A stretch of DNA of 64,000 bases from Candidatus Woesearchaeota archaeon (GTDB lineage Archaea; Nanobdellota; Nanobdellia; Woesearchaeales; UBA10216), in NCBI GenBank assembly GCA_016211185.1, contig JACQST010000043.1, forward strand, positions 1,489 through 65,488, written 5' to 3'. The notes under the pieces are model-generated. The model was given only the letters and a program-made list of their open reading frames with translations. It ran no database searches and was not told the origin of the DNA. Positions within the stretch are counted from its first letter, which is position 1, and every line of letters begins with the position of its first letter. Position numbers and translations under genes: made by a program. Positions 6,164-57,825 of the stretch are shown here, in pieces.

Positions 6164-6196
6164 TTGGATGCTTTATGCCTTGGTTGGTTATGCTCT

Positions 6197-6841
6197 ATGG
6201 TCAGGATACCAAAAACACTCGATGAGATTAATGCTAACCTACTGCGGCCTTCAAATGAAAATGCGGCGAGAGATGCAAATTCGATAAAGTACAGGCTCGA
6301 GGGCATTGTAGATGAACTTAGGAATGCCAAGTCTGCTTATGAAGGTTTACCTTCTGCTGTGGATTCTCCACCTGTAAGGGATACTATCCAGTCCACAGGA
6401 AAGCTGAAACAGGTCAAAGTGGCTTTGAAGATAGCAAACTATACTGCGAAAGTTGGCTGGGTAAAATTGAGGGGCACAGAAAAAGAGAGGTTTAAAAGAG
6501 GTATAGATAAAGCCTTGCGGAATGTCAGATTCAGCCTTAACAAAGCTGCCACTAAAATGAGGGAACTGAAGGAGAAAGTTGAATCTATAAAGGGCGTATT
6601 AAATTCATTGCAAAATAGTGAAGCCAAAGTTTACATAAATTCACAAATACAAATCGTTGAACAAAAAAGTAATGCAGTTTTGTTGTTGATAACAGAATTG
6701 GCTGAAAAGGTTAACCTGTTGAATTTTGAAGACTTCGATATTACTGATTTTGATAAGGCCTTGACTGCTGCAGAAAATGCTATCTCGCCGGTAAAAGGAA
6801 TGATACATGCTTTTGCAAATATTGATAGTAAATTAAAATAA
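6197..6841 (+). CDS. Coiled-coil protein (about 215 aa); it may be the C-terminal continuation of 4889..6163, separated from it only by a single TAG
   Basis: The track ORF begins at TTG 6164, immediately after the TAG at 6161..6163 and in the same frame as the upstream gene. The first ATG is at 6197. Helical heptad-like content (KLKQVKVALKIANYTAKVGWVKL...). Confidence 0.45.
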   Translation: MVRIPKTLDEINANLLRPSNENAARDANSIKYRLEGIVDELRNAKSAYEGLPSAVDSPPVRDTIQSTGKLKQVKVALKIANYTAKVGWVKLRGTEKERFKRGIDKALRNVRFSLNKAATKMRELKEKVESIKGVLNSLQNSEAKVYINSQIQIVEQKSNAVLLLITELAEKVNLLNFEDFDITDFDKALTAAENAISPVKGMIHAFANIDSKLK

Positions 6842-8757: not shown

Positions 8758-10053
8758 TTACTTGAGCTCCTTCTTAACGAGGTCTATGCACATCCCTGCT
8801 GCAACTGTTGCGCCTGAGTCACGAACCGCGAATCTTGACATCTGTGGTATGTCCATCTGCTTCTCTATTACGAGTGGCGTTGTGGGCTTGACTTTTACTA
8901 CTGCGATGTCTCCGTTCTTTATGAAGTCTGGTTTTTCCTGCAGGGTTTCTCCTGTTGCAGGGTTTACCTTTTTCTCTATGGACAGTATCTGGCACGCCAC
9001 TTGTGCTGTGTGCACGTGGAATACTGGTGTGTAGCCTGCTGTGACGACTGTCGGGTGGTTTATGATTGCTATCTGCGCTGTGAATTCTGTGGCGAGGGTT
9101 GGTGCCTTGTCAGGGTGGCCTATTACGTCTCCTCTTGTTATGTCTTGCTTTGCTATTCCCCTTATGTTGAATCCTATGTTGTCTCCGGGCTCTGCGATGT
9201 CTATTGTCTCGTGGTGCATCTCTATGGTCTTGACTTCGCCGTGGACTCCTTTGCCTTCCCTTCCTGGCACTGCTATGACTTTGTCGCCTACCTTCATCTG
9301 GCCTGTTTCAACCCTTCCGACAGGAACAACTCCTATGCCTGTGATGTTGTAGACGTCCTGTATTGGTAGCCGTAACGGGAGGTTGATTGGCTTGTCTGGC
9401 TGCTTTAGGTTGTTTATTGCCTCTATCAGTGTAGGCCCTTTGTACCATGGCATGTTTTCTGACCTGTTCTTTACGTTTTCTCCCAGGTATGATGCCATCG
9501 CGACGAATTGTATCTCATCTGGGTTGTATCTTACTGTTTTAAGTAAAGCGCTTACCTCTGCCTTTACCTCATCGAACCTTTTCTGGTCGTACTGTACCAT
9601 ATCCATCTTGTTTATTCCGACGATGAGTTGGCCGACTCCGAGTGTTCGGGAGAGGAATATATGTTCCTTTGTCTGCGCCATTACGCCTTCTCCTCGGTTT
9701 GCTGATACTACAAGGACTGCTGCGTCTGCCTGTGACGCTCCTGTTATCATGTTCTTGATGAAGTCCCTGTGTCCTGGCGCGTCTATTATTGTGAAGTAGT
9801 ATTTGTCTGTCTCAAACCTTTTATGGGCGAGGTCTATTGTGAGCCCTCTTTCCTGCTCCTCCTTGAGGTTGTCCATTACGAATGCGAATTCGAAGCCGCT
9901 TTTCCCAAGCTCCTTTGCCTTTTCCTTGAGCTTCCTCATGGTCTGCTCATCTACGGTGCCTGAGTCATAGAGGAGCCTTCCGACTGTTGTTGATTTGCCG
10001 TGGTCTACGTGACCTATGAACACTACGTTAAGGTGTGGTTTTTGCTTAGCCAT
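8758..10053 (-). CDS. tuf: Translation elongation factor 1-alpha (aEF-1A)
   Basis: [30 protein letters not shown] and NKMD GTPase motifs. The start was refined to ATG at 10053; the track ORF carries a spurious 54-aa N-terminal extension. Confidence 0.95.
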
Positions 10054-10160
10054 TTTGTTTTTTTCCTCCTGAAATGATGGTAAATTTGTTGTTTCTGGGA
10101 TTTGGGCAGGGTATTTAAATTTTGTGGTATAGAAAAGTTTATAAATCAGTAACCTGAAGG

Positions 10161-10664
10161 GTGTGCTGTAAAGAGGTGAACAGGTTGCAAAGGAAGGGTG
10201 CGCTTGATGTATCAATCAATTCTATTGTCGTTATTGTTTTCGCGATAACAATGCTCGGGCTGGGGCTTGCCTTCATAAAGGGCAAGTTTAGTGAGATAGG
10301 CAAGACTGTTACTTTTCCTCAGCCTGAGATACCTGCATCTGCCGAAGAGCCTATCGTTTTGCCGTCTGAAGTTATGAGCGTAAACAGAGGCACAAACGCT
10401 GAGGTGAGCATTAATTTTTACAATAATCAGAATAGTGATGTTACCTCTAGTGTTATCCCTGAAATCAAGAATTGCGTGGGAACAAGCGGCAGCTCTTTTG
10501 CTCTTGGTGTGACAGCAGGCGGCCAGAATGTTCCTGTTGGCCGTAGTGTTACATATAAGGCGTTGGTGGTTATTCCTCCTGATAAGCCCTCAGGGACTTA
10601 TACTTGCACGCTCCATATAAGTGATACCACAAAGCAGTTCTTCCTGAAGGTGAGTGGAAAATAA
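10161..10664 (+). CDS. Type IV pilin-like protein with class III (prepilin-peptidase) signal peptide
   Basis: N-terminus ...NRLQRKG|[26 protein letters not shown]: a basic n-region, KG followed by a hydrophobic stretch. The C-terminus ([14 protein letters not shown]) resembles that of 11011..11574. Confidence 0.55.
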
Positions 10665-10666
10665 AG

Positions 10667-10996
10667 GTGATTATTATGGCTAAGAAGAAGTCTGCAAAAG
10701 GCATTGATTATGCTGAGGACATGACAAGGAATCTGAACATTGCGCCCAGCAAGTTCAAGCCGAAGATTGTTTTCGGCAAGGTCAAGAGAAAGCTGTCTGT
10801 TGAGCAGGAGTTCGAAATCATGAAGCTGGTGCTTGACAAGTTCCTGTGGCTTGGGTTCGGCATAATGGCTTATGGGCTGTATAGGATATATACGAGCACT
10901 GAGCTCAGGGATTTTTATGTGATGCTTGTTGGAGCTTCTGTGCTGCTGCTCTTCATATGGATACTTGTGCGCGAGTATGAAGTGGCCAAGTTCTGA
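10667..10996 (+). CDS. Small hypothetical membrane protein (109 aa, basic N-terminus and two C-terminal TM helices)
   Basis: Track ORF lying between two pilin-like genes. Confidence 0.45.
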   Translation: MIIMAKKKSAKGIDYAEDMTRNLNIAPSKFKPKIVFGKVKRKLSVEQEFEIMKLVLDKFLWLGFGIMAYGLYRIYTSTELRDFYVMLVGASVLLLFIWILVREYEVAKF

Positions 10997-23686: not shown

Positions 23687-24712
23687 ATGGGAGGAAAGGA
23701 CGCTACCATACAGGGCTTAGGTTTATTTATTCCTGACACGTCATATCTCATAGACCTTTCGCAAAGGAATATCTGGACGCTTCATGCTCATGATGCTTAC
23801 GCCAGGGCTGGGAACCCTGAGATCCGTGTTCCTGACAGGGTAATAAATGAATACCTTGGAAAAGTGGGTATGCATGATGAATACGGCGTGCCTCTGACAA
23901 GCAATGAAGTAAAATCTGCGCTGGAAGAAATACTTGGTTCTTGGGATACTAACATTACATCATTCGCACAGGAAGACATGGACAGGATTCACGGGATGTG
24001 GACGCTGCGGTGTCGTAAGAGCAGGATACCTGGCCACAGATACAGCAAGACTGACATGGACATCATGAGCACTGCAGTGACAAAGGCAAAGGAAGGCTTC
24101 ACTGTCTATGTGGCCTCTTCAGACAGAGACATAACGGAAACTCTGATGGGTCATCAGGATAATGGCTTCCCTATAGTGGTGTTTATGCCTTCCACCCCGA
24201 GGAAAGACGTCCTTGATAAGGTGTGCATGCTCGTGACCGGGCAGGCACTTATGCAGGTACCTGAAGTTGTTGGTCGCGGCTACGAGTCCTACAACTATTT
24301 TCTGAAGGTGGTTAAAGGTGTGCCTTTCGGAGAGGGCTGCACAGCAAATGTCGCTGTGGCTGCAGAGAGATTCGACTCATTCAGGAAGCCGCCAAAACAG
24401 GAGGGTATATCATGGGTGAAGATCATAGTAGGAACTCTTGGAGACGACGCAAGGAATGCCAATCGATTTTGGCACAGAACCCGTGAGTTTGGGCTGAATG
24501 AGCTTGTTGGCTTTACCTGCTGTGCTTATCCTGGAGATTTCAGCCTCTACAAAATAGGTCTCGAAACCAATGGGGCACAGCCAACGGCATACGCGACCTC
24601 CCGCATATCAGTGGATGCTGAGGAAGTGGTCTGGGCAAGGGTTGACCTGCCTTTCATGAGGGCCCATTCTCCACGCGCGCTCGGTATGCTCAGCCCGTAT
24701 ATGAATCGGTAG
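23687..24712 (+). CDS. PIN-domain protein with an uncharacterised C-terminal extension of about 170 aa
   Basis: Acidic residues placed as in a PIN fold (FIPDTSYLID, VPDRVINEYLG, KTDMDIMSTA, VASSDRDITE); the C-terminal half has no recognisable domain. Confidence 0.5.
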   Translation: MGGKDATIQGLGLFIPDTSYLIDLSQRNIWTLHAHDAYARAGNPEIRVPDRVINEYLGKVGMHDEYGVPLTSNEVKSALEEILGSWDTNITSFAQEDMDRIHGMWTLRCRKSRIPGHRYSKTDMDIMSTAVTKAKEGFTVYVASSDRDITETLMGHQDNGFPIVVFMPSTPRKDVLDKVCMLVTGQALMQVPEVVGRGYESYNYFLKVVKGVPFGEGCTANVAVAAERFDSFRKPPKQEGISWVKIIVGTLGDDARNANRFWHRTREFGLNELVGFTCCAYPGDFSLYKIGLETNGAQPTAYATSRISVDAEEVVWARVDLPFMRAHSPRALGMLSPYMNR

Positions 24713-24729: not shown

Positions 24730-26508
24730 ATGTCCATTGCTTTATCAATGGTGTTATCCAGAAAGCCTTTTAAAATGCATGGTTATCCTGCCGGCATGGA
24801 GAACTTCAAAACAGGCTTTTATTCTGAGCTTGTGTCTGCTCTGAGGAACAGCAGGTTCGATAAGGCTGAGTTCTCAAGGCTGAAATCGAGTCTTGCAAGT
24901 AAGTATTCCTTGAAAAGCATTCCGACAGATATTGAGGTAATGCTTAACCTGCCTGAAGAATCAAGGAAGCATATCAAGCTCGTGACCAAGCCTACACGGA
25001 CTGTTAGCGGCGTTGCAGTGGTTGCCCTTATGAGCGCTCCTCTGAGCTGCCCTCATGGGAGGTGTGTTTTTTGCCCTGGCGGCCCAGGCTCTGTTTTTGG
25101 TGACGTTCCGCAGAGCTATACAGGGAAGGAGCCTTCGACTATGAGGGCTATCAGGGCAGGTTACGATCCTTATGTCATTATGTTTAACAGGCTTGAGCAG
25201 TATGCTGTTTCGGGGCACAGCTTTGGCAAGGTGGAGGTTATTGTGCAGGGAGGCACATTCCCTTCTTATGACTGGTCGTATCAGGAGATGTTTGTGAGAG
25301 AAGCTTTTGCAGCGATGAACAGCTTTTCACGGCTTTTTTTCAGGAGGGAAGGGAAGTGGGAAGGGGAGCTGGATTTCGTGGGCTTCAAGGATTTCTTTGA
25401 TCTTCCTGGCGAGGTCGGGAGCTCTGAGCGCATGAGGAAGGTTCACTCAAGAATATTCGAGGCCAAGAACTCGTCACAGGCAAGGAGCCTTGAGGAGGAG
25501 CAGGAAGAGAACGAGTCTTCCAATGTGAGGTGTGTTGCGCTTTGCATCGAGACAAAGCCTGACTTCAGCAAGTCTGAGCACATCAATGACATGCTCAGGC
25601 TGGGGACAACGAGGGTTGAGCTTGGGGTGCAGACACTTTATGATGACGTCCTGTCAAGGGTTAACCGGGGCCACACCCTGCAGGACACTTTGGAGGCTGT
25701 GCAGCTTCTGAAGGATTCCTTCCTGAAAGTTGGCTTTCACATGATGCCAGGCCTTCCAGGCTCGGATTATCAGAGGGACATCGCTATGTTCAGGGAGCTT
25801 TTCGAAAACCCCGCATACATGCCCGATAATCTGAAGGTTTATCCCTGCATGGTTATGCCTGGAACAGAGCTTTACGATGACTGGAAGAGGGGGGATTTTG
25901 CTCCTTTGTCCACAAGGGAGGCTGCGGAAATAATAGCTGAGTCAAAGAGGTTTGTGCCTGAGTATTGCAGGGTCATGAGGGTGCAGAGGGATATTCCGAC
26001 TTATGTGACATCTGCAGGTGTTGACAGGACAAATCTCAGGCAGTATGTGGATATGATAAGGGCTGAGCAGGGGATTTTCTGTAGGTGCATAAGGTGCCGT
26101 GAGCCAATGTCAAGGAAGTTTGATTTGGGCAGGGCTGAAATCATAGTTCGGCGCTACGCTTCAAGTGGCGGAACAGAGGTATTTATTTCGGCAGAGGATG
26201 TTTCGTCTGATGTGATGCTTGGGTTCTGCAGGCTCAGGATTCCGTTCAGGCCGTTCAGGCCAGAGATAACCCCTGGCTCTGCAGGTGTGAGGGAGCTGCA
26301 TGTATTCGGCCCCGCAGCCTCTCTTAACAGAGTGGGGAGTGTTCAGCACAGGGGCTTTGGAAAGCTTCTTCTTTCAGAGGCTGAGCGTGCCGCGAGGGAT
26401 GAGCTTGGTGTGGAGAAGCTGCTCGTGATTTCAGGTGTCGGCGCAAGGAACTATTACCGGAAGCTTGGCTACGAGAGGGATGGGGCGTATATGGGTAAGA
26501 GGCTTTAG
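24730..26508 (+). CDS. elp3: Elongator complex protein 3 homolog (radical SAM plus GNAT; tRNA U34 carboxymethyl modification)
   Basis: CPHGRCVFCPGG radical-SAM cluster motif and a C-terminal GNAT (HRGFGKLLLSEAERAA). Confidence 0.85.
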   Translation: MSIALSMVLSRKPFKMHGYPAGMENFKTGFYSELVSALRNSRFDKAEFSRLKSSLASKYSLKSIPTDIEVMLNLPEESRKHIKLVTKPTRTVSGVAVVALMSAPLSCPHGRCVFCPGGPGSVFGDVPQSYTGKEPSTMRAIRAGYDPYVIMFNRLEQYAVSGHSFGKVEVIVQGGTFPSYDWSYQEMFVREAFAAMNSFSRLFFRREGKWEGELDFVGFKDFFDLPGEVGSSERMRKVHSRIFEAKNSSQARSLEEEQEENESSNVRCVALCIETKPDFSKSEHINDMLRLGTTRVELGVQTLYDDVLSRVNRGHTLQDTLEAVQLLKDSFLKVGFHMMPGLPGSDYQRDIAMFRELFENPAYMPDNLKVYPCMVMPGTELYDDWKRGDFAPLSTREAAEIIAESKRFVPEYCRVMRVQRDIPTYVTSAGVDRTNLRQYVDMIRAEQGIFCRCIRCREPMSRKFDLGRAEIIVRRYASSGGTEVFISAEDVSSDVMLGFCRLRIPFRPFRPEITPGSAGVRELHVFGPAASLNRVGSVQHRGFGKLLLSEAERAARDELGVEKLLVISGVGARNYYRKLGYERDGAYMGKRL

Positions 26509-26510
26509 TT

Positions 26511-26909
26511 TCAAGCATCGCCAAGTCTGAGACCGGGAATATTTTTAAAATCCTTGAGGTTCCGCGTCAGGAGAACATTATTGTTTTCCTTGCATATGCT
26601 TGCTATCATTAAGTCTATTTCCTGTGTGATGAGTCCTCTTGATTTGAGGAACGCATAATCCCGGCCAAATATAAGGCAGCTGTGCTTTGAATGTTGAAGC
26701 AAGTTGACACTTTCAAGAAACCTGTTGACAAAACTCAGTCCCTCTTCAGGTTTTACAGACATAAATGCGCCTTTATATAGCTCGCAGAGGGTTAAGGGAG
26801 TTATGCTTATATCGGCTTCCATGTTCTGCAGAAGGCTTAATCTTTTTACTGCCGAGCTTTCTCCTCTGATAAAATCAATGGCAAAATCTGTATCGAGGCA
26901 GTACATCAA
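26511..26909 (-). CDS. vapC: PIN-domain toxin VapC
   Basis: MMYCLDTDFAIDFIRG...; 132 aa; overlaps the upstream antitoxin by 4 nt. Confidence 0.75.
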   Translation of the reverse strand: MMYCLDTDFAIDFIRGESSAVKRLSLLQNMEADISITPLTLCELYKGAFMSVKPEEGLSFVNRFLESVNLLQHSKHSCLIFGRDYAFLKSRGLITQEIDLMIASICKENNNVLLTRNLKDFKNIPGLRLGDA

Positions 26910-27136
26910 AACCCTACCTTCCGTAATTTAAACTTTTTCCTATCCTCATAGATAGTCCTCTTGATGGTTTCAAGTTCTTGATTTCCTCCAGGCCATTTTC
27001 CCGCAAGCTCAAGAAGGGACTTCTTTTTTTCAGTTGACGCAATTCTGTTGACTACATCAGAGAACGATTCACCTTCCTTCTTCAAAGATTTTAGGCATGT
27101 GTAGGCTTCATCCGAAAGCGAGATTACCTTGGTCAT
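26906..27136 (-). CDS. vapB: VapB-type antitoxin (archaeal)
   Basis: MTKVISLSDEAYTCLKSLKKEGESFSDVVNRI matches the common archaeal VapB-like antitoxin; translationally coupled to vapC. The start was refined from the track. Confidence 0.6.
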   Translation of the reverse strand: MTKVISLSDEAYTCLKSLKKEGESFSDVVNRIASTEKKKSLLELAGKWPGGNQELETIKRTIYEDRKKFKLRKVGF

Positions 27137-27192
27137 TAAGTGCATGTATGCATGCATGTATATAAATTTACCGTTCCAGAAGTTTCCGAACA

Positions 27193-27438
27193 TCAAGACT
27201 TTTTGTATGTAACGTTGAGATATGCAGAGTCTATATCAGTTTTCCCGCCAGGTGTTACAAGGATTTGTGCAATGCCCTTGTTTATCATAGGGTTAAGTGT
27301 GGCTGTTTTTCTTTCCCTGACAAAGTCATCACAATGTACATAATAGTCAGGTATGGGTTTCCATTCGTCGAACTCTGTAAGTGTGTACATAGAAAAAACA
27401 TAAGTGCACAGAACATCAACAACCGCTTTTGTCTCCAC
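27193..27438 (-). CDS. Hypothetical protein (81 aa)
   Basis: Track ORF in an AT-rich islet with no recognisable domain. Confidence 0.35.
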   Translation of the reverse strand: METKAVVDVLCTYVFSMYTLTEFDEWKPIPDYYVHCDDFVRERKTATLNPMINKGIAQILVTPGGKTDIDSAYLNVTYKKS

Positions 27439-27495
27439 TACCTGTCCGAATTCGGAAACATTGAACTTGATTAATTGTTCCTCTTTCTGGGATCA

Positions 27496-27867
27496 TCATT
27501 TCTTCTTGCCTCCGAAGCTCCTTATTAGGTCTATTACGTATTTTCCCTCGTCAACCTTGTATATGAGTGGCTCGTTTTTCATCATCTGGACTAAGTCAAG
27601 TTCGTAGGTTCCTGGCTTCATTATCCTTATTGTTTCTAAGTCAAGCACAACAGGTTCGTGTTCCTCCTGCTCGCCTATTATCTCCATGACGTCCTGCTCT
27701 ATCTGGTCTTTTTCTGTTTCTGTGAGGTTGGCTGAGAGTTCCCTTATCCTGTCAAGCTTTTCCTTTTTTATGAAGAAGAACAGCTTGCCTCCACAGGGGC
27801 ATCCCTTGAGGACTTCCTCTGCCTTGTCTTCATAGAACGTGTTGCATCGCACGCATTGGTGGGGCAT
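27496..27867 (-). CDS. Zn-ribbon protein (DUF2072-like); third gene of a GTPase/DUF2073/Zn-ribbon triad
   Basis: MPHQCVRCNTFYEDKAEEVLKGCPCGGKLFFF is a CxxC...CxC ribbon; an acidic middle and a C-terminal beta-rich domain follow. Confidence 0.55.
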   Translation of the reverse strand: MPHQCVRCNTFYEDKAEEVLKGCPCGGKLFFFIKKEKLDRIRELSANLTETEKDQIEQDVMEIIGEQEEHEPVVLDLETIRIMKPGTYELDLVQMMKNEPLIYKVDEGKYVIDLIRSFGGKKK

Positions 27868-27869
27868 TT

Positions 27870-28268
27870 TCAGGCCTGCTTTGTTCTTTTTCTTCTGGTG
27901 CTTTTTTCAACAGTGAACAGCTGTATCTTGTCAGGGTCTTTTTTTATTTCCTTGACTATTGTTGCGGGCCCGACTATGGTTATGCCATTCCTCCCGCCTG
28001 ATATCATGTCTATTACTTTCTGCTGGAGCATCTTCAGTATTCCATGCTCCCTCATGTCTGGTGTTAAGGAGAGCAGTTCTATTCCCTTGAACTTTCCATT
28101 TATTGTTTCCATTGTGGCGCTTATGAGTTTTGATTTTTCCTGCTCTGTCAGCTTAGCCTCAATGAGGAGTATTCTTCCGTCCCTTATTATTTCGAGTATC
28201 CTCTTTATTTTTTTTTCAGGGCTTAAGTCGCCTATCTGTGAATACGGGAGGAACTGGATTGTTATCAT
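27870..28268 (-). CDS. DUF2073-like protein
   Basis: 132 aa lying between the GTPase and the Zn-ribbon gene with gaps of 12 and 2 nt. The family assignment is from memory of the conserved archaeal triad. Confidence 0.45.
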   Translation of the reverse strand: MITIQFLPYSQIGDLSPEKKIKRILEIIRDGRILLIEAKLTEQEKSKLISATMETINGKFKGIELLSLTPDMREHGILKMLQQKVIDMISGGRNGITIVGPATIVKEIKKDPDKIQLFTVEKSTRRKRTKQA

Positions 28269-28280
28269 TTTTTTCGGGCC

Positions 28281-28910
28281 TCAGGTTATCTTGAACAGGG
28301 CCTCGTACAGCTTCTCGATGTTTGTGCCGTACTTTGCCGCTACTGGTATTACCTCGTATTGCGGGAATGCTGCCTGTATTTTTTTTATGTTTGCCTTTCT
28401 GAGGTCTGTCTTGTTAGCGACGATGAGCATTGGCGTTCGTCGTGCCTCAAGGTTTCCTATTATGGTTATGTTGACCTGGGAGTATGGGTCTTTTGTTGAG
28501 TCCAGCACAACTATGACTGCATCCATGTCATCAAGCCATTTTATTGCGTCGATTACTCCCCTTGTGGCTTCCTTTGCGCGCTTCTTTGCTATTTTGGAAG
28601 GCATGCCTGCCTTCACGAAGTCCTCGTAGTCTATCTTTGTGGCTATTCCTGGGGTATCCACCAGCGTAAAGAGCAGCTCTTTCTTTCCCGACCTTATTAT
28701 GATTTGGTCCTTTAGCTGCACTTCCCTTGTTTCATGGGGTATGTGGCTGACTGTTCCCATCTCCTCGCCTATCCAGTCTATGCAGATTCTGTTTGCAAGG
28801 GTGGTTTTGCCGCCATTCGGAGGCCCGTAAAGTCCTATCTTGATGTTTCTTTTGCTCCTGAAAAGGTGTGTGAATACTCTGTGTATAAGGTTGCTGAAGA
28901 CTGTTATCAT
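28281..28910 (-). CDS. Small Ras/Arf-like GTPase
   Basis: G1 GPPNGGKTT, G3 DTPG and G4 NKTD motifs; 209 aa. Confidence 0.75.
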   Translation of the reverse strand: MITVFSNLIHRVFTHLFRSKRNIKIGLYGPPNGGKTTLANRICIDWIGEEMGTVSHIPHETREVQLKDQIIIRSGKKELLFTLVDTPGIATKIDYEDFVKAGMPSKIAKKRAKEATRGVIDAIKWLDDMDAVIVVLDSTKDPYSQVNITIIGNLEARRTPMLIVANKTDLRKANIKKIQAAFPQYEVIPVAAKYGTNIEKLYEALFKIT

Positions 28911-29004
28911 CCTTTGTGCCTCTTTTCTACCCCCTATCCCCTCGTTGCGATATATAAAAAGATTGCGGTAGCTTTATATATTTCTTTTCTCAGTTTTCTT
29001 TGCC

Positions 29005-29547
29005 ATGATTCCAGTGGTTAAGGAAGACATTCTTCTTGTCCTGAAGGATGTTGATTCGGCTATAGCCAGGAATGATGTTTCCGCTCTGAAGCTTATGAGT
29101 GACAGGACTATACACAATTCATCTATTTTTCAGGATGAGGATTCCATTACTATAGCAGTTGTTATTTACTCACTGTCAAAGATTGCTGAGCGAGGCATAG
29201 TTAAGCTGGAAAGGGCATCTGGGTTTGTGAAGCATGCGCTCAGGCATCTTAAGAGGGATGAGCTGCACAGGTATAAGGCAGTGATGAAGAGGCTTTCAAA
29301 GTTCATTTCAGACAATGATTTCAGGTTCAAGATTTATGTGCAGGACGTCATTGACAAGGCACAGGTTGCCAAGGGCTCCAGGATTTATTACCATGGGATT
29401 TCGCTGGCACAGGCCGCGAATATACTTGGGATTTCACAGTGGGACTTGATGGGGTATGTGGGCAAAACCAAGATAATCGACAGCTATGGCAGGATTGGGA
29501 ACGTCAAGGATAGGCTGAATCTCGCGAGGCGGCTTTTCATAAAATGA
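29005..29547 (+). CDS. UPF0175-like HTH protein (putative antitoxin) with an N-terminal extension of about 100 aa
   Basis: The C-terminal ISLAQAANILGISQWDLMGYVGKTKI matches the UPF0175 HTH; it overlaps the downstream PIN gene by 4 nt (ATGA). Confidence 0.5.
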   Translation: MIPVVKEDILLVLKDVDSAIARNDVSALKLMSDRTIHNSSIFQDEDSITIAVVIYSLSKIAERGIVKLERASGFVKHALRHLKRDELHRYKAVMKRLSKFISDNDFRFKIYVQDVIDKAQVAKGSRIYYHGISLAQAANILGISQWDLMGYVGKTKIIDSYGRIGNVKDRLNLARRLFIK

Positions 29548-30248
29548 GGTCAGTTGTGTTTGATGCGGGGCCGGTCATAAGCCTGAGCATGAACAACCTT
29601 CTCTGGCTACTTGAGCCTCTCAGGAAGAGCTTTGGCGGCGAGTTTCTTATCCCTGAGCCTGTGAAGGAGGAGCTTGTTGACAGGCCGCTTAAGATAAAGC
29701 GGTTTGAGTTCGAGGCGTTGCAGGTTCAGAGCGAGATAGACTGCGGGGTTTTCAGGGTTGTGAATGACACAAGGGTTGACGCGCTTGCAAAGGAGCTCTA
29801 TGAGCTTGCCAACAGCTGCTTCTCTGCAAAGGGCAGCAATATCAGCATGCTTCACTTTGGTGAGGTTTATACGCTTGCATCGGTTTCTGTTATGGGGTGT
29901 GAAGCTGCGGTGGTTGATGAGCGGACTACAAGGGAGCTTGTTGAGAGCCCTGAGGACATTGCGAAGCACATGCAGGCCAAGCTGCACACGAAGGTCAGCA
30001 TTGATTACGGAAGGCTGGACAAGCTGCGCAGCATGGTGGACGGCATGAGAATCTTGAGGTCTGTTGAGCTTGTCGCGGTTGCTTTTGAGATGGGGCTGCT
30101 GGACAGGTATATTGACAGGTGCAGGAACCCTACCGAGGAGATGAGGGCAAGGCTTCTTGACAGTGTTTTGTGGGGCGTGAAGCTTGAGGGCTGCGCAGTC
30201 AGCGAAAAGGAGATTGAGAGGATTATGAGCCTTGAGATGGCTAAATAA
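29544..30248 (+). CDS. PIN-domain protein of the DUF3368 type (putative toxin partner of UPF0175)
   Basis: VVFDAGPVISLSMNNLLWLLEPLRKSFGGEFLIPEPVKEEL matches the DUF3368 N-terminus. Confidence 0.5.
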   Translation: MRSVVFDAGPVISLSMNNLLWLLEPLRKSFGGEFLIPEPVKEELVDRPLKIKRFEFEALQVQSEIDCGVFRVVNDTRVDALAKELYELANSCFSAKGSNISMLHFGEVYTLASVSVMGCEAAVVDERTTRELVESPEDIAKHMQAKLHTKVSIDYGRLDKLRSMVDGMRILRSVELVAVAFEMGLLDRYIDRCRNPTEEMRARLLDSVLWGVKLEGCAVSEKEIERIMSLEMAK

Positions 30249-30259
30249 GTGGCGACATT

Positions 30260-31204
30260 TCAGGATTTCATTATCTTCGCTATGAAAAAGCCTTCTGTGT
30301 CGTTGTCCTGTGGCCATATCCTCAGGCATTTCCCGATATTCTTATCGTATTCATCCCCATCAAATTGTGCTATAGTTTCGGAGCTTTTCACCGCGAGGCT
30401 TATCTTTTGGAGCTTTGCACCTTCCTCATTCTTTAGCAGGTGGTCAACCGCCCCTTCGTTCTCCTCCGGCTCCATTGAGCAGGTCGAGTAGACGAGTGTT
30501 CCGCCTTGGTTTAGGAGGCTGTATGCCTTTTTTATGAGGCCTTTCTGCATGGCCGCAAGCCTTTTGACAAGGGCATAATTGTATTGCTGGAGAACGTGCA
30601 GGTTTCTTCTTATTGTTCCTGTGGCTGAACAGGGCGCATCCAGCAGTATTTTGTCAAATGTCTGTATTCTCATGTTCCTTCCCTCCATGTGCGTTATGAC
30701 TGTGTTTGCTACTCCTGCTCTGTTAAGGTTGAGTCCCAGCGCTTTGATTCTGTCAGCATTGATGTCGTTTGCTATTATGGCCCCTTTGTTTGCCATCATG
30801 GCTGCCATCTGGGTTGTCTTGCTGCCTGGCGCTGCGCACATGTCCAGCACGGTTTGGTGAGGACGGGGGGATAGTGCAAGGGGCGGTATCATGCTTGCTG
30901 ATTCCTGGACATATATGTAGCCCAGTATGTGCTCAGGCAGGTTGCCTATGTCCAGCCTGCTTCCGGTTATCCAGAACCCTTCCCTGCACCATGGTATCTG
31001 CTCAAGCTGCCAGTCTTGAGACAGCCTCCTCCTGAGTTCCTTGACAGTTATCTTTAGGGTGTTGACCCTTATGCTTCTCCTTATGAAAGAGGTTGAGTGC
31101 TCCATGAAGTCAGGATATTTTTCTTGCAAGAGTTCACTATACCTTTCCTTGAATTCTTTTTTTATAACAAGGCTTTCTCTTCCCGGTATTGGCTTGAGGG
31201 GCAT
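30260..31204 (-). CDS. NOL1/NOP2/Sun-family RNA cytosine-C5 methyltransferase
   Basis: MCAAPGSKTTQMAA SAM motif, DAPCSATG and TLVYSTCSMEPEENE catalytic cysteine motifs. Confidence 0.85.
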   Translation of the reverse strand: MPLKPIPGRESLVIKKEFKERYSELLQEKYPDFMEHSTSFIRRSIRVNTLKITVKELRRRLSQDWQLEQIPWCREGFWITGSRLDIGNLPEHILGYIYVQESASMIPPLALSPRPHQTVLDMCAAPGSKTTQMAAMMANKGAIIANDINADRIKALGLNLNRAGVANTVITHMEGRNMRIQTFDKILLDAPCSATGTIRRNLHVLQQYNYALVKRLAAMQKGLIKKAYSLLNQGGTLVYSTCSMEPEENEGAVDHLLKNEEGAKLQKISLAVKSSETIAQFDGDEYDKNIGKCLRIWPQDNDTEGFFIAKIMKS

Positions 31205-43371: not shown

Positions 43372-44025
43372 CTATGCTGCTTGTCTGAGTTTATTGGACT
43401 TCAACTGTGATTCGAGTTGGTCGATATACCCCCTTATTGTTTCTTCACTGATTTTTAATTTTCTTATTGTGTTAGATTCCCTTACCATAAGGTCCACCAG
43501 TGCACTCCGGGCTGCAGATAGATTAGCAGGGTCTTTTTCTGCCAGCTTTTCGCTGCCAAGAATTTCTTTCAGTCTTATCAATAAGTTCCCTTGGACTTGT
43601 AGCGTTGTTAACAGGGCGTTTATCGCGTCAATCTCCTCGGTAAGTGTGGCAACCATGGAAGGTTCGTCAATAGCTGTTCCTGCGAGGCGTTGCTTGCTTT
43701 TGCTTCTTATCAGAGTCTGAAAGTCTGTATTTTGTCTTCCGAGTGTCTCAATTATCACTGTTACGACTTTAGCTGCTGCGCTCTTTGTTTTTCTTATTTC
43801 CTGTTCTTTTATTCTATTTACTGCGAAGTCACAGATATTTTTTAGGAGAGGCACGAGGCTGTCAGATATAACTGCGAATTTTCTTTCTTCAAGGAGAAAT
43901 TCTCTTGCAGTAATTATTACTGCTTCGCGCTCTAAGTTTACGATTTGCTTGACAAGTGTTGCCCAGTCCTCAATATTCTTTGGATGATGCTCTGACTCAA
44001 GCCTGTGAAGTATAGGGTCTGTCAT
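43372..44025 (-). CDS. Hypothetical protein (217 aa) located between gatD and gatE
   Basis: Track ORF; abuts the upstream gene with no gap. Confidence 0.45.
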   Translation of the reverse strand: MTDPILHRLESEHHPKNIEDWATLVKQIVNLEREAVIITAREFLLEERKFAVISDSLVPLLKNICDFAVNRIKEQEIRKTKSAAAKVVTVIIETLGRQNTDFQTLIRSKSKQRLAGTAIDEPSMVATLTEEIDAINALLTTLQVQGNLLIRLKEILGSEKLAEKDPANLSAARSALVDLMVRESNTIRKLKISEETIRGYIDQLESQLKSNKLRQAA

Positions 44026-56930: not shown

Positions 56931-57089
56931 TGTATTCCTCAGTATTTGTAAGCATGTATGTTAATGTATGTAATTAATGTATGTAATTATTCTGTTTCTG
57001 ATGCATCTCATACTATTTAAACATTCCCATTTAGGCGATTAAGTTATCAAAAGAAAACCTATAAATAGTAGTTTTTGTTTTATTGCTTT

Positions 57090-57365
57090 ATGCCTGAGCG
57101 CTTTTACGAAAAAATAAAGCTGCACATCCTGAAAAAGCTTTTTGATATGCGCTGCTGGATGGGGAAACACGCTAGCATTCATACCATGCAAAAGGGATTG
57201 CCTTCACACGCAAGGGATTCCAAAACAATAAGCAAGGTCATCAGTGAGCTGGCACAAAAGGAATGGATTTTAACAAAGCCAACACATTACGGGCTGGAAT
57301 TATCGCTTAATATCCAAAAGAAAAGAGATATTGAGGAGTTCATAGAGGCGAACTTGGATTTTTAA
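57090..57365 (+). CDS. Winged-helix-like small regulator (hypothetical)
   Basis: Divergent from 56607..56930 across an AT-rich repeat-containing spacer. Start chosen at MPERFYEK. Confidence 0.4.
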   Translation: MPERFYEKIKLHILKKLFDMRCWMGKHASIHTMQKGLPSHARDSKTISKVISELAQKEWILTKPTHYGLELSLNIQKKRDIEEFIEANLDF

Positions 57366-57546: not shown

Positions 57547-57825
57547 TTGGGAATTGTTGTAGCAGGCATGCCGCTATTGTTTCTTACAAAAGTGGCTGTT
57601 TATTTCTGGATTACCTCTGTAGGGCTGCTGTTGCTGATGGCTGTTTTAAAGGCAACAGCCTTAAAGGGGCTTTCCTCCAGAATGCTTGTGCTTAATTCAG
57701 GGTTTATTTTCTTAGGAATTCCTTTCAATCTTGACTATAATGTCCTGTTCAGGATAATAGGTGGGATGCTTATCTCGATCGCGTTAGCTCTAATAATTAA
57801 AGCTAAATGGAGGGATAAAAAATGA
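57547..57825 (+). CDS. Small hypothetical membrane protein (92 aa)
   Basis: Three TM helices; overlaps the next gene by 4 nt. Confidence 0.4.
   Translation: MGIVVAGMPLLFLTKVAVYFWITSVGLLLLMAVLKATALKGLSSRMLVLNSGFIFLGIPFNLDYNVLFRIIGGMLISIALALIIKAKWRDKK

Follow-up and report, generated by a model that had tools for sequence, protein, structure and literature searches.

The window analysed here is a stretch of 64,000 nucleotides from a Candidatus Woesearchaeota archaeon (assembly GCA_016211185.1, contig JACQST010000043.1, positions 1,489 to 65,488 of the forward strand). Its sequence was also detected in the dataset SRR12113385. Between two of its core genes, ELP3 and NOP2, lies a segment of 3.7 kb (26511-30248) holding eight open reading frames (ORFs): a vapBC toxin-antitoxin (TA) pair, a short ORF (orf81), the genes arvC, arvB and arvA, and a pair coding for a helix-turn-helix (HTH) protein of 180 residues and a PIN-domain protein of 234 residues, referred to below as HTH180 and PIN234 (Table 1). 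The segment is tightly fitted at both ends, with 2 nt between the stop codons of ELP3 and vapC and 11 nt between PIN234 and the convergent NOP2 gene. An earlier sequence-only reading had claimed the same eight ORFs, all of which we find where it placed them, and took the whole for a small defence or addiction island. We arrive with high confidence at a different account, in which the segment is a composite of three parts with one small variable slot inside a conserved Woesearchaeota neighbourhood: about 1 kb of the 3.7 kb (26509-27495, the vapBC pair and a broken gene remnant) is accessory DNA, and the remaining 2.7 kb or so (arvABC and HTH180-PIN234) is ancestral core.

Table 1. Features of the ELP3-NOP2 segment and its flanks (positions in the window)
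Feature	Coordinates	Strand	Basis or remark
ELP3, core gene, left flank	24730..26508	+	TIGR01211, E 4e-195
vapC, PIN-domain toxin, 131 aa from ATG at 26906	26511..26906 (ORF to 26909)	-	PF01850, 34.9 bits
vapB, antitoxin, 76 aa from the probable start M21	26906..27136 (long ORF 26906-27196, 96 aa)	-	PF02697, 64 bits
Candidate archaeal TATA box TTTATATA	27159..27166	-	By eye, archaeal promoter consensus; ~22 nt upstream of vapB ATG
orf81, 81 aa, GTG start, no family	27193-27438	-	ORF list
orf81 remnant region	27196..27471	-	C-terminal 92-97 aa of the gene for a 221-286-aa secreted/membrane-anchored protein
arvC/oapC, Zn-ribbon (CxxC...CxC)	27496..27867	-	PF09845 (formerly DUF2072, now OapC), 81.6 bits against a cut-off of 23
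arvB/oapB (formerly DUF2073)	27870..28268	-	PF09846 (now OapB), 63.9 bits against a cut-off of 27
arvA/oapA, small Arf/Era-like GTPase, 209 aa	28281..28910	-	MMR_HSR1, E 6e-15; Arf, E 3e-6
arvA/HTH180 divergent intergenic region, 94 nt	28911..29004	.	Two back-to-back TATA-like boxes
arvA-side TATA-like box	~28951-28960	-	By eye
HTH180-side TATA-like box	28973-28980	+	By eye; ~24 nt before HTH180 ATG
HTH180, 180 aa	29005..29547	+	N-terminal helical domain (unknown fold) and C-terminal remote UPF0175-like HTH
PIN234, 234 aa	29544..30248	+	PIN-fold nuclease domain and ~100-aa C-terminal extension
NOP2/RsmB-F family 5-methylcytosine methyltransferase, core gene, right flank	30260..31204	-	PF01189, E 2e-57

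The comparison of gene order used related loci and contigs that carry L-numbers as labels. An ELP3 scan of the GTDB species representatives yielded one syntenic relative (L001) among 80 loci, and closer relatives were reached through homologues of PIN234. Two of these, L166 and L172 (PIN234 63% identical), have the order of the window, ATPase-ELP3-arvC-arvB-arvA-HTH-PIN-NOP2-VIT1-DUF211-(small ORF)-YchF, with an empty slot between ELP3 and arvC, which stand 80 or 132 nt apart without vapBC or orf81. L161 (PIN234 70% identical) reads ELP3-[103-aa and 150-aa ORFs, no family]-arvCBA-HTH-PIN-[cupredoxin]-NOP2, and L001 (ELP3 67% identical) reads ATPase-[methyltransferase]-ELP3-[300-aa ORF]-arvC-arvB-arvA. 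L174 has the genes in two separated blocks (ELP3-arvCBA and HTH-PIN-(151 aa)-NOP2), L163 and L170 keep (HTH-)PIN-NOP2-...-VIT1-DUF211, and the distant relative L175, with core proteins 45-70% identical, retains an ATPase-ELP3...NOP2-arvABC neighbourhood; ELP3 adjoins arvC in five relatives (L001, L161, L166, L172 and L174). Because L166 and L172 share the order of the window and L161, L001, L174 and L175 keep large parts of it, arvABC and HTH-PIN are assigned to the ancestral core. The sequence-only reading had itself proposed that the same gene content at the same place in relatives would mark an ancestral segment, and this holds for the 2.7 kb of arvABC and HTH-PIN but fails for the 1 kb of vapBC and orf81; the direct junction of ELP3 and NOP2 that it suggested looking for in relatives without the segment was seen in no long contig, arvABC and HTH-PIN separating the two genes there too.

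Base composition and codon usage draw the same boundary. The mean GC content of the window is 0.483, and its 67 background ORFs have a mean GC of 0.484 (standard deviation 0.033) and a mean third-position GC (GC3) of 0.546 (standard deviation 0.069); percentiles are taken against same-size windows. With a GC of 0.449 the whole segment falls in the lowest 3.7%, and the source of this signal is 26509-27495, at 0.402 in the lowest 2%, where vapC (0.414), vapB (0.407) and orf81 (0.394) have GC3 z scores of -1.5 to -2.6 (GC3 of orf81, 0.37) and the codon fit of vapC and vapB is low (z = -1.2 and -2.3). The arvCBA block, at 0.449, stands at the 10th percentile (arvC 0.454, arvB 0.416, arvA 0.467), but its GC3 is normal (z -0.8 to +0.5) and its codon fit above average (z +0.6 to +1.1), the highest value being that of arvB despite its low GC; in L161 and L166, too, arvB ranks with the genes of lowest GC within the block. 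Because GC3 is normal and the codon fit above average, the mildly low GC of the arv genes is an amino-acid (second-position, GC2) effect and not a mark of foreign origin. HTH180-PIN234, at 0.491, lies at the 64th percentile, and PIN234 alone (0.523) is above average. The visible drop in GC relative to the flanks, for which the sequence-only reading had proposed a windowed GC and codon-usage profile, is thus real for about 1 kb, absent from HTH-PIN, and in arvCBA confined to GC without a counterpart in GC3 or codon fit.

Four further low-GC ORFs occur elsewhere in the window (6164-6841, 43372-44025, 57075-57365 and 57547-57825; GC 0.38-0.42, z -2.1 to -3.1, none with a Pfam family). They are possible extra accessory spots, and the two ORFs of about 95 aa at 57.1-57.8 kb could form another small module.

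Within the accessory 1 kb, the vapB-vapC pair is translationally coupled, as had been claimed: the vapB stop and the vapC ATG share one base (TGATG; four bases with the TTG start), and both proteins score above their Pfam cut-offs (23.6 bits for PF01850 and 27.9 bits for PF02697). Since the PF02697 match begins at residue 23 of the long ORF, the real start of vapB is probably M21 at 27136; the VapB homologues of L175 and L176 have 79 and 76 aa. In an alignment, the VapC acidic residues D5, E42 and D98 are invariant across 18 homologues, and the C-terminal residues are GDA in place of the homologues' nearly invariant terminal W. The protein is an exact match of an NCBI entry annotated as VapC family toxin from the same organism. 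The NCBIfam VapC models stay below their cut-offs (NF047863, 73 against 140 bits; NF010285, 46.8 against 143 bits), which places it outside the tRNA(fMet)-specific VapC equivalog.

The distribution of vapBC is patchy. Searches retrieved 29 VapC homologues (compared with 1,234 for PIN234), from Woesearchaeota and Diapherotrites, the best of them 63% identical. No vapBC was found within 10 kb on either side in L001, L161, L166, L172 and L174, and 80 metagenomic arvA loci hold no homologue of vapB, vapC or orf81. The vapBC pair of L175, 60/64% identical to that of the window, belongs to the same neighbourhood but occupies another slot, flanked by VIT1 and a 255-aa gene adjoining NOP2, and L176 has one of equal similarity (about 60%) in an unrelated context. 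To judge by its family, VapC would be a Mg2+-dependent PIN RNase that is neutralised through direct binding of VapB, and VapB would probably also autoregulate the vapBC transcript, which the position of the predicted TATA box implies to be leaderless. On this model the DNA of the slot would have been gained or retained patchily, and vapBC would be at most a selfish addiction module, with nothing tying it to its neighbours.

Beside vapB lies orf81, which the sequence-only reading called an orphan. The ORF exists; its orphan status does not stand. An exhaustive phmmer search matched proteins of 221-286 aa with N-terminal membrane anchors (hits P0271, P0273 and P0275), and in these orf81 corresponds only to the C-terminal third (about 80 residues, 43-48% identity). 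By tblastn (E 2e-23 to 7e-15) the homology covers 27196-27471/27519, passing upstream of the GTG start and breaking off some 25 nt short of the arvC stop; there is no start codon further upstream, tblastn found the remainder of the parent gene nowhere in the window, and no related locus holds an orf81 homologue. Because the homology runs past the start codon toward the arvC stop and takes in the C-terminal third only, orf81 is a 5'-truncated gene remnant and not an orphan gene. The fragment would be the trace of an earlier deletion or recombination event where the slot borders arvC. We also considered a non-coding RNA in the 360-nt spacer between vapB and arvC and rejected it: the window gave no Rfam or tRNA match, and the spacer is the gene remnant. 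Two short contigs, L177 (2-1162) and L178 (2-1033), carry a full-length 221-aa orf81 homologue directly downstream of a VapC-like gene, whose product is 30% identical to the VapC of the window, although the genes follow another order there than in the window; this hints that orf81-type and vapC genes travel together in variable regions.

The next three genes are the Ras-like GTPase/DUF2073/Zn-ribbon triad that had been counted among the TA-type modules. The genes are there, but the triad is the arvABC (oapABC) extracellular-vesicle operon, a core and vertically inherited set that belongs neither to TA nor to defence systems. Its proteins are well conserved (identity to relatives 67-77% for arvC and 70-75% for arvA), and among 81 related loci arvA is followed by arvB in 74, with arvC in 69. 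According to Mills et al. (2024, PMC10927574), the Haloferax volcanii GTPase OapA, renamed ArvA, is required for the formation of extracellular vesicles, and the downstream genes arvB and arvC also affect vesiculation. The same paper describes ArvA homologues in 14 archaeal phyla (seven of them DPANN) with a phylogeny that follows taxonomy; among the genomes that encode ArvA, 93% have arvB directly downstream and 78% have arvC no more than two genes away. In the proposed mechanism, ArvA would cycle between GTP and GDP, with ArvB as putative guanine nucleotide exchange factor and ArvC as putative Zn-ribbon GTPase-activating protein, and thereby drive vesicle budding. An exact-sequence look-up of the ArvA of the window returned no record. 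A replication origin or origin recognition box (ORB) repeats near the oap genes were considered and set aside: 26000-30600 has no convincing direct or inverted repeats, and no Orc1/Cdc6 was seen among seven large or low-GC candidate ORFs.

Between arvA and HTH180 the divergent intergenic region carries two TATA-like boxes that would serve as promoters in opposite directions, the position of the second predicting a leaderless HTH180 mRNA; a scan for sigma-70 promoters and for terminators gives no information in an archaeon. On the arvA side the region has a conserved ATATAAAAA motif, and the arvA-side motif ATATAAAAAnATT recurs in L161, L166, L172, L175, L088 and L081. The two genes stand head to head, with a putative divergent promoter region in common, not only in the window but also in L161, L166, L172 and L175 and in about one fifth of the more distant arvA loci (HTH-PIN lies next to arvA in 10 of the 47 with enough upstream sequence). 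The region is larger in three relatives, where it spans 265-350 nt, is AT-rich and contains long perfect hairpin palindromes (L161, 9129-9464; L166, 9106-9455; L172, 9197-9461), which may be insertions resembling miniature inverted-repeat transposable elements between the two promoters.

HTH180 and PIN234 (exact NCBI matches HY640_02805 and HY640_02810) overlap by the 4 nt ATGA, exactly as the sequence-only reading had it. Its assignment of the pair to UPF0175-HTH and DUF3368-PIN holds as remote homology only, neither protein reaching the Pfam thresholds. HTH180 scores 13.4 bits against UPF0175 (PF03683; E 0.064, cut-off 27.9) and so lies outside the family proper, and sub-threshold UPF0175 matches (E at most 0.01; best E 2e-4) appear in 29 of 53 members of its family; precomputed database matches to PF11848 (DUF3368) in the PIN234 family are weak or faint only. 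A profile search of the PDB placed PIN234 nowhere by sequence, and its fold was needed for placement: it is a PIN fold, closest to VapC toxins, with a conserved acidic set (D7, E43, D125 and E175) at the active site. The AlphaFold2 model of HTH180 (predicted local distance difference test score 78) is confident for the N-terminal helical domain and of low confidence in the C-terminal region; it found no fold match (best Foldseek E 0.96), and a profile search of the PDB yielded nothing beyond a marginal CAP-repeat match.

By its distribution the pair belongs with the core genes. Homologues number 1,234 for PIN234 and 358 for HTH180 (177-189 aa), are uniform in length, and, where the source is named, are almost all labelled Woesearchaeota; in seven genomes their identity to the proteins of the window follows the identity of the core genes. 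NOP2 adjoins PIN234 in L163, L166, L172 and L175, lies one gene off in L161 and L174 and 373 nt off in L170, and in all related long contigs HTH-PIN is syntenic with NOP2 or arvA, which is not the patchy distribution of mobile TA loci. The pair therefore resembles TA systems in architecture and remote ancestry without being an established member of the UPF0175-COG2405 type, and behaves as a core module. We propose that it derives from the predicted UPF0175-COG2405(PIN) TA type or is a relative of it and is now fixed in synteny, that PIN234 would be an active RNA nuclease, and that HTH180 would control it through the HTH region at its C-terminus, a part predicted to be disordered in isolation. 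The description of the segment as packed with TA-type modules was accordingly overstated: it holds one bona fide TA pair (vapBC) and one pair that is TA-like by architecture only, the triad is not related to TA systems, and the orphan is a gene fragment.

Scans for traces of mobility and defence gave little. No convincing direct or inverted repeats were found in 26000-30600, no tRNA gene or Rfam family in the 64 kb (ARAGORN; Rfam gathering threshold), and no integrase or transposase Pfam domain in the eight ORFs, and PADLOC returned only marginal matches to known defence families (E at least 5e-4).

At the junction between ELP3 and arvC these DPANN genomes have a small recombination slot whose cargo varies between relatives: it is empty in L166 and L172 and holds unrelated genes in L161 and L001. 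None of the ORFs compared (103 and 150 aa in L161, 300 aa in L001, 255 aa in L175) has a Pfam family or resembles the slot of the window, nor do they resemble one another. The ATPase|ELP3 and PIN|NOP2 junctions are likewise recombination slots with differing cargo. In the former, between the P-type ATPase and ELP3, the window carries a 341-aa ORF (23687-24712, plus strand) of normal GC, without a Pfam, NCBIfam or PADLOC family, whose N-terminus (FIPDTSYLIDL ... ASSDRD) looks PIN-like by eye; the same slot is empty in L166 and L172, and holds genes for a major facilitator superfamily transporter and an alcohol dehydrogenase in L161 and an 834-aa DNA methyltransferase in L001. The PIN234|NOP2 slot consists of 11 nt in the window (30249-30259), a cupredoxin gene in L161 (10699-11172) and a 151-aa ORF without a family in L174 (10710-11165). 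ParE-toxin/DUF7557 pairs lie near the conserved neighbourhood in L170 (9-496) and L174 (4843-5340), and nearby slots therefore hold different TA families in different genomes. One 1977-bp Logan contig, L168, matches L166 with 96.7% DNA identity for 1.5 kb, and the two part within the N-terminus of NOP2; in L168 the 3' end of ELP3 stands directly upstream of NOP2, and PIN234 remains on the other side of NOP2. Such a layout could come from an inverted arvCBA-HTH-PIN-NOP2 block in a close strain or from chimeric assembly.

We weighed this composite account against other explanations of the same data. That all of 26511-30248 is one horizontally acquired defence or addiction island between ELP3 and NOP2, as first read, would agree with the low GC of the segment and with its three groups of two or three small genes, of which two include PIN domains; we give this view almost no credence, and the empty-site relatives refute it in practice. 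The arvCBA and HTH-PIN genes occupy the same positions, in unchanged order, in L166, L172 and L161, with identities that track core genes and with normal GC3 and codon fit (PIN234 being richer in GC than average), arvABC is already known as a vertically inherited operon (PMC10927574), and neither a PADLOC defence family nor a tRNA, an integrase or flanking repeats turned up. The accessory part raises a question of its own, whether vapBC is an old resident lost in the closer relatives and not a recent insertion, its AT-richness being intrinsic to small genes and their spacer. The vapBC pair of L175, within the same ATPase-ELP3...NOP2-arvABC neighbourhood at core identities of 45-70%, would suit such a history, as would the lack of insertion scars or mobility genes. 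We nevertheless hold it to be unlikely, because the pair of L175 sits in a different slot (VIT1 | 255-aa gene by NOP2), the five relatives named above lack vapBC, an equally similar pair occurs in the unrelated context of L176, the codon fit of both genes is below the norm of the window, and the adjoining truncated orf81 fragment shows that the slot has been remodelled.

For HTH180-PIN234 the alternative is a TA system that still works, in addiction or stress, and has become fixed in the lineage, PIN234 arresting growth upon degradation of HTH180, as opposed to a housekeeping nuclease with its regulator. The architecture is the classic one (a partner of DNA-binding type encoded upstream, its gene overlapping the next by the 4 nt ATGA), the PIN fold is closest to VapC toxins and keeps its catalytic acidic residues, the C-terminus of HTH180 is UPF0175-like and, as in many antitoxins, predicted to be disordered alone, and UPF0175-COG2405 pairs are predicted TA systems (PMC2701414, PMC5499597); we regard a working TA system as possible, although not probable. 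The module is lineage-wide and of uniform length, with stable NOP2/arvA synteny and core-like divergence, unlike mobile TA loci; at 180 and 234 aa its proteins are far larger than the canonical 80 and 120-150 aa or so; 8.8 kb separate its two genes in L170; and PMC2701414 and PMC5499597 report no experimental TA proof for any UPF0175-COG2405 pair. A more specific proposal, that the pair is a domesticated TA-derived nuclease-regulator module, core to Woesearchaeota and tied in function to its arvABC and NOP2 neighbours, we consider quite improbable; in that case it might process RNA for vesicles or rRNA, or regulate arv expression. Several observations weigh against the composite account itself, or against roles within it. 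The vapBC slot has no insertion signatures (repeats, integrase or tRNA); gain of vapBC here and loss elsewhere are both possible, including ancestral presence followed by several losses, and its identity of 60-64% in L175 is slightly above what is typical of core genes for that genome pair (about 45-70%). By hmmscan, DUF3368 matches none of 57 members of the PIN234 family, and the roles of both proteins are deduced from fold and conservation only. In L170 the HTH180 homologue (513-1139) and the PIN233 homologue (9971-10699) lie apart, so that tight coupling is not obligatory, which weakens the idea that the HTH protein controls the PIN protein. The vesicle role of arvABC is known from a single organism, Haloferax. 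(The DNA between the two L170 homologues holds three reverse-strand genes, for a 1790-aa CARDB protein, an S8 peptidase and SpoIIM.)

With these points taken into account, the composite account mainly corrects an over-reading, in which small PIN-domain genes and a GC dip mimicked a defence or addiction island, and comparative synteny narrows the accessory DNA to a 1-kb vapBC insert with a gene remnant; only this slot keeps the character of an accessory islet, arvABC and HTH-PIN being found at the same place in relatives. The slot holds an ordinary vapBC module, and the only element with some potential is HTH-PIN, a TA-like pair that is now a conserved syntenic core module across Woesearchaeota, recurrently linked to arvABC and NOP2 and often standing head to head with the vesiculation operon. 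If functional, the linkage to this operon would, speculatively, bring a nuclease into archaeal vesicle or RNA biology.

Each of the three parts can be set beside a known system. The vapBC pair agrees with type II VapBC systems (PF01850 with PF02697) in its PIN-domain residues D5/E42/D98, its small upstream PF02697 antitoxin, its overlapping stop and start, and its patchy distribution, AT-rich composition and variable-slot location; it differs in a VapC score below the tRNA(fMet)-specific equivalog cut-off (73 against 140 bits) and in the replacement of the terminal W that is nearly invariant in its closest homologues. The arv operon has the same series as Haloferax volcanii arvABC (HVO_3014 and its downstream genes): an Arf/Era-like GTPase, then PF09846, then the PF09845 Zn-ribbon gene. 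It differs in belonging to a DPANN lineage (Woesearchaeota), in lacking an evident origin-associated context (no Orc1/Cdc6 among the seven candidate ORFs checked), and in being often paired divergently, in this lineage, with an HTH-PIN module, of which PMC10927574, in its account of the genes downstream of arvA, makes no mention. HTH180-PIN234, finally, resembles the UPF0175 (COG2886)-COG2405/DUF3368 PIN pairs, which are predicted and not proven TA systems (Makarova 2009, PMC2701414; Matelska 2017, PMC5499597), in its HTH-type partner upstream of an overlapping VapC-like PIN gene and in the sub-threshold UPF0175 matches throughout the HTH180 family; it differs in an extra 120-aa N-terminal helical domain in HTH180 and a C-terminal extension of about 100 aa in PIN234, in missing the Pfam thresholds, and in being lineage-wide and syntenic where those pairs are patchy, and separable, as L170 shows.

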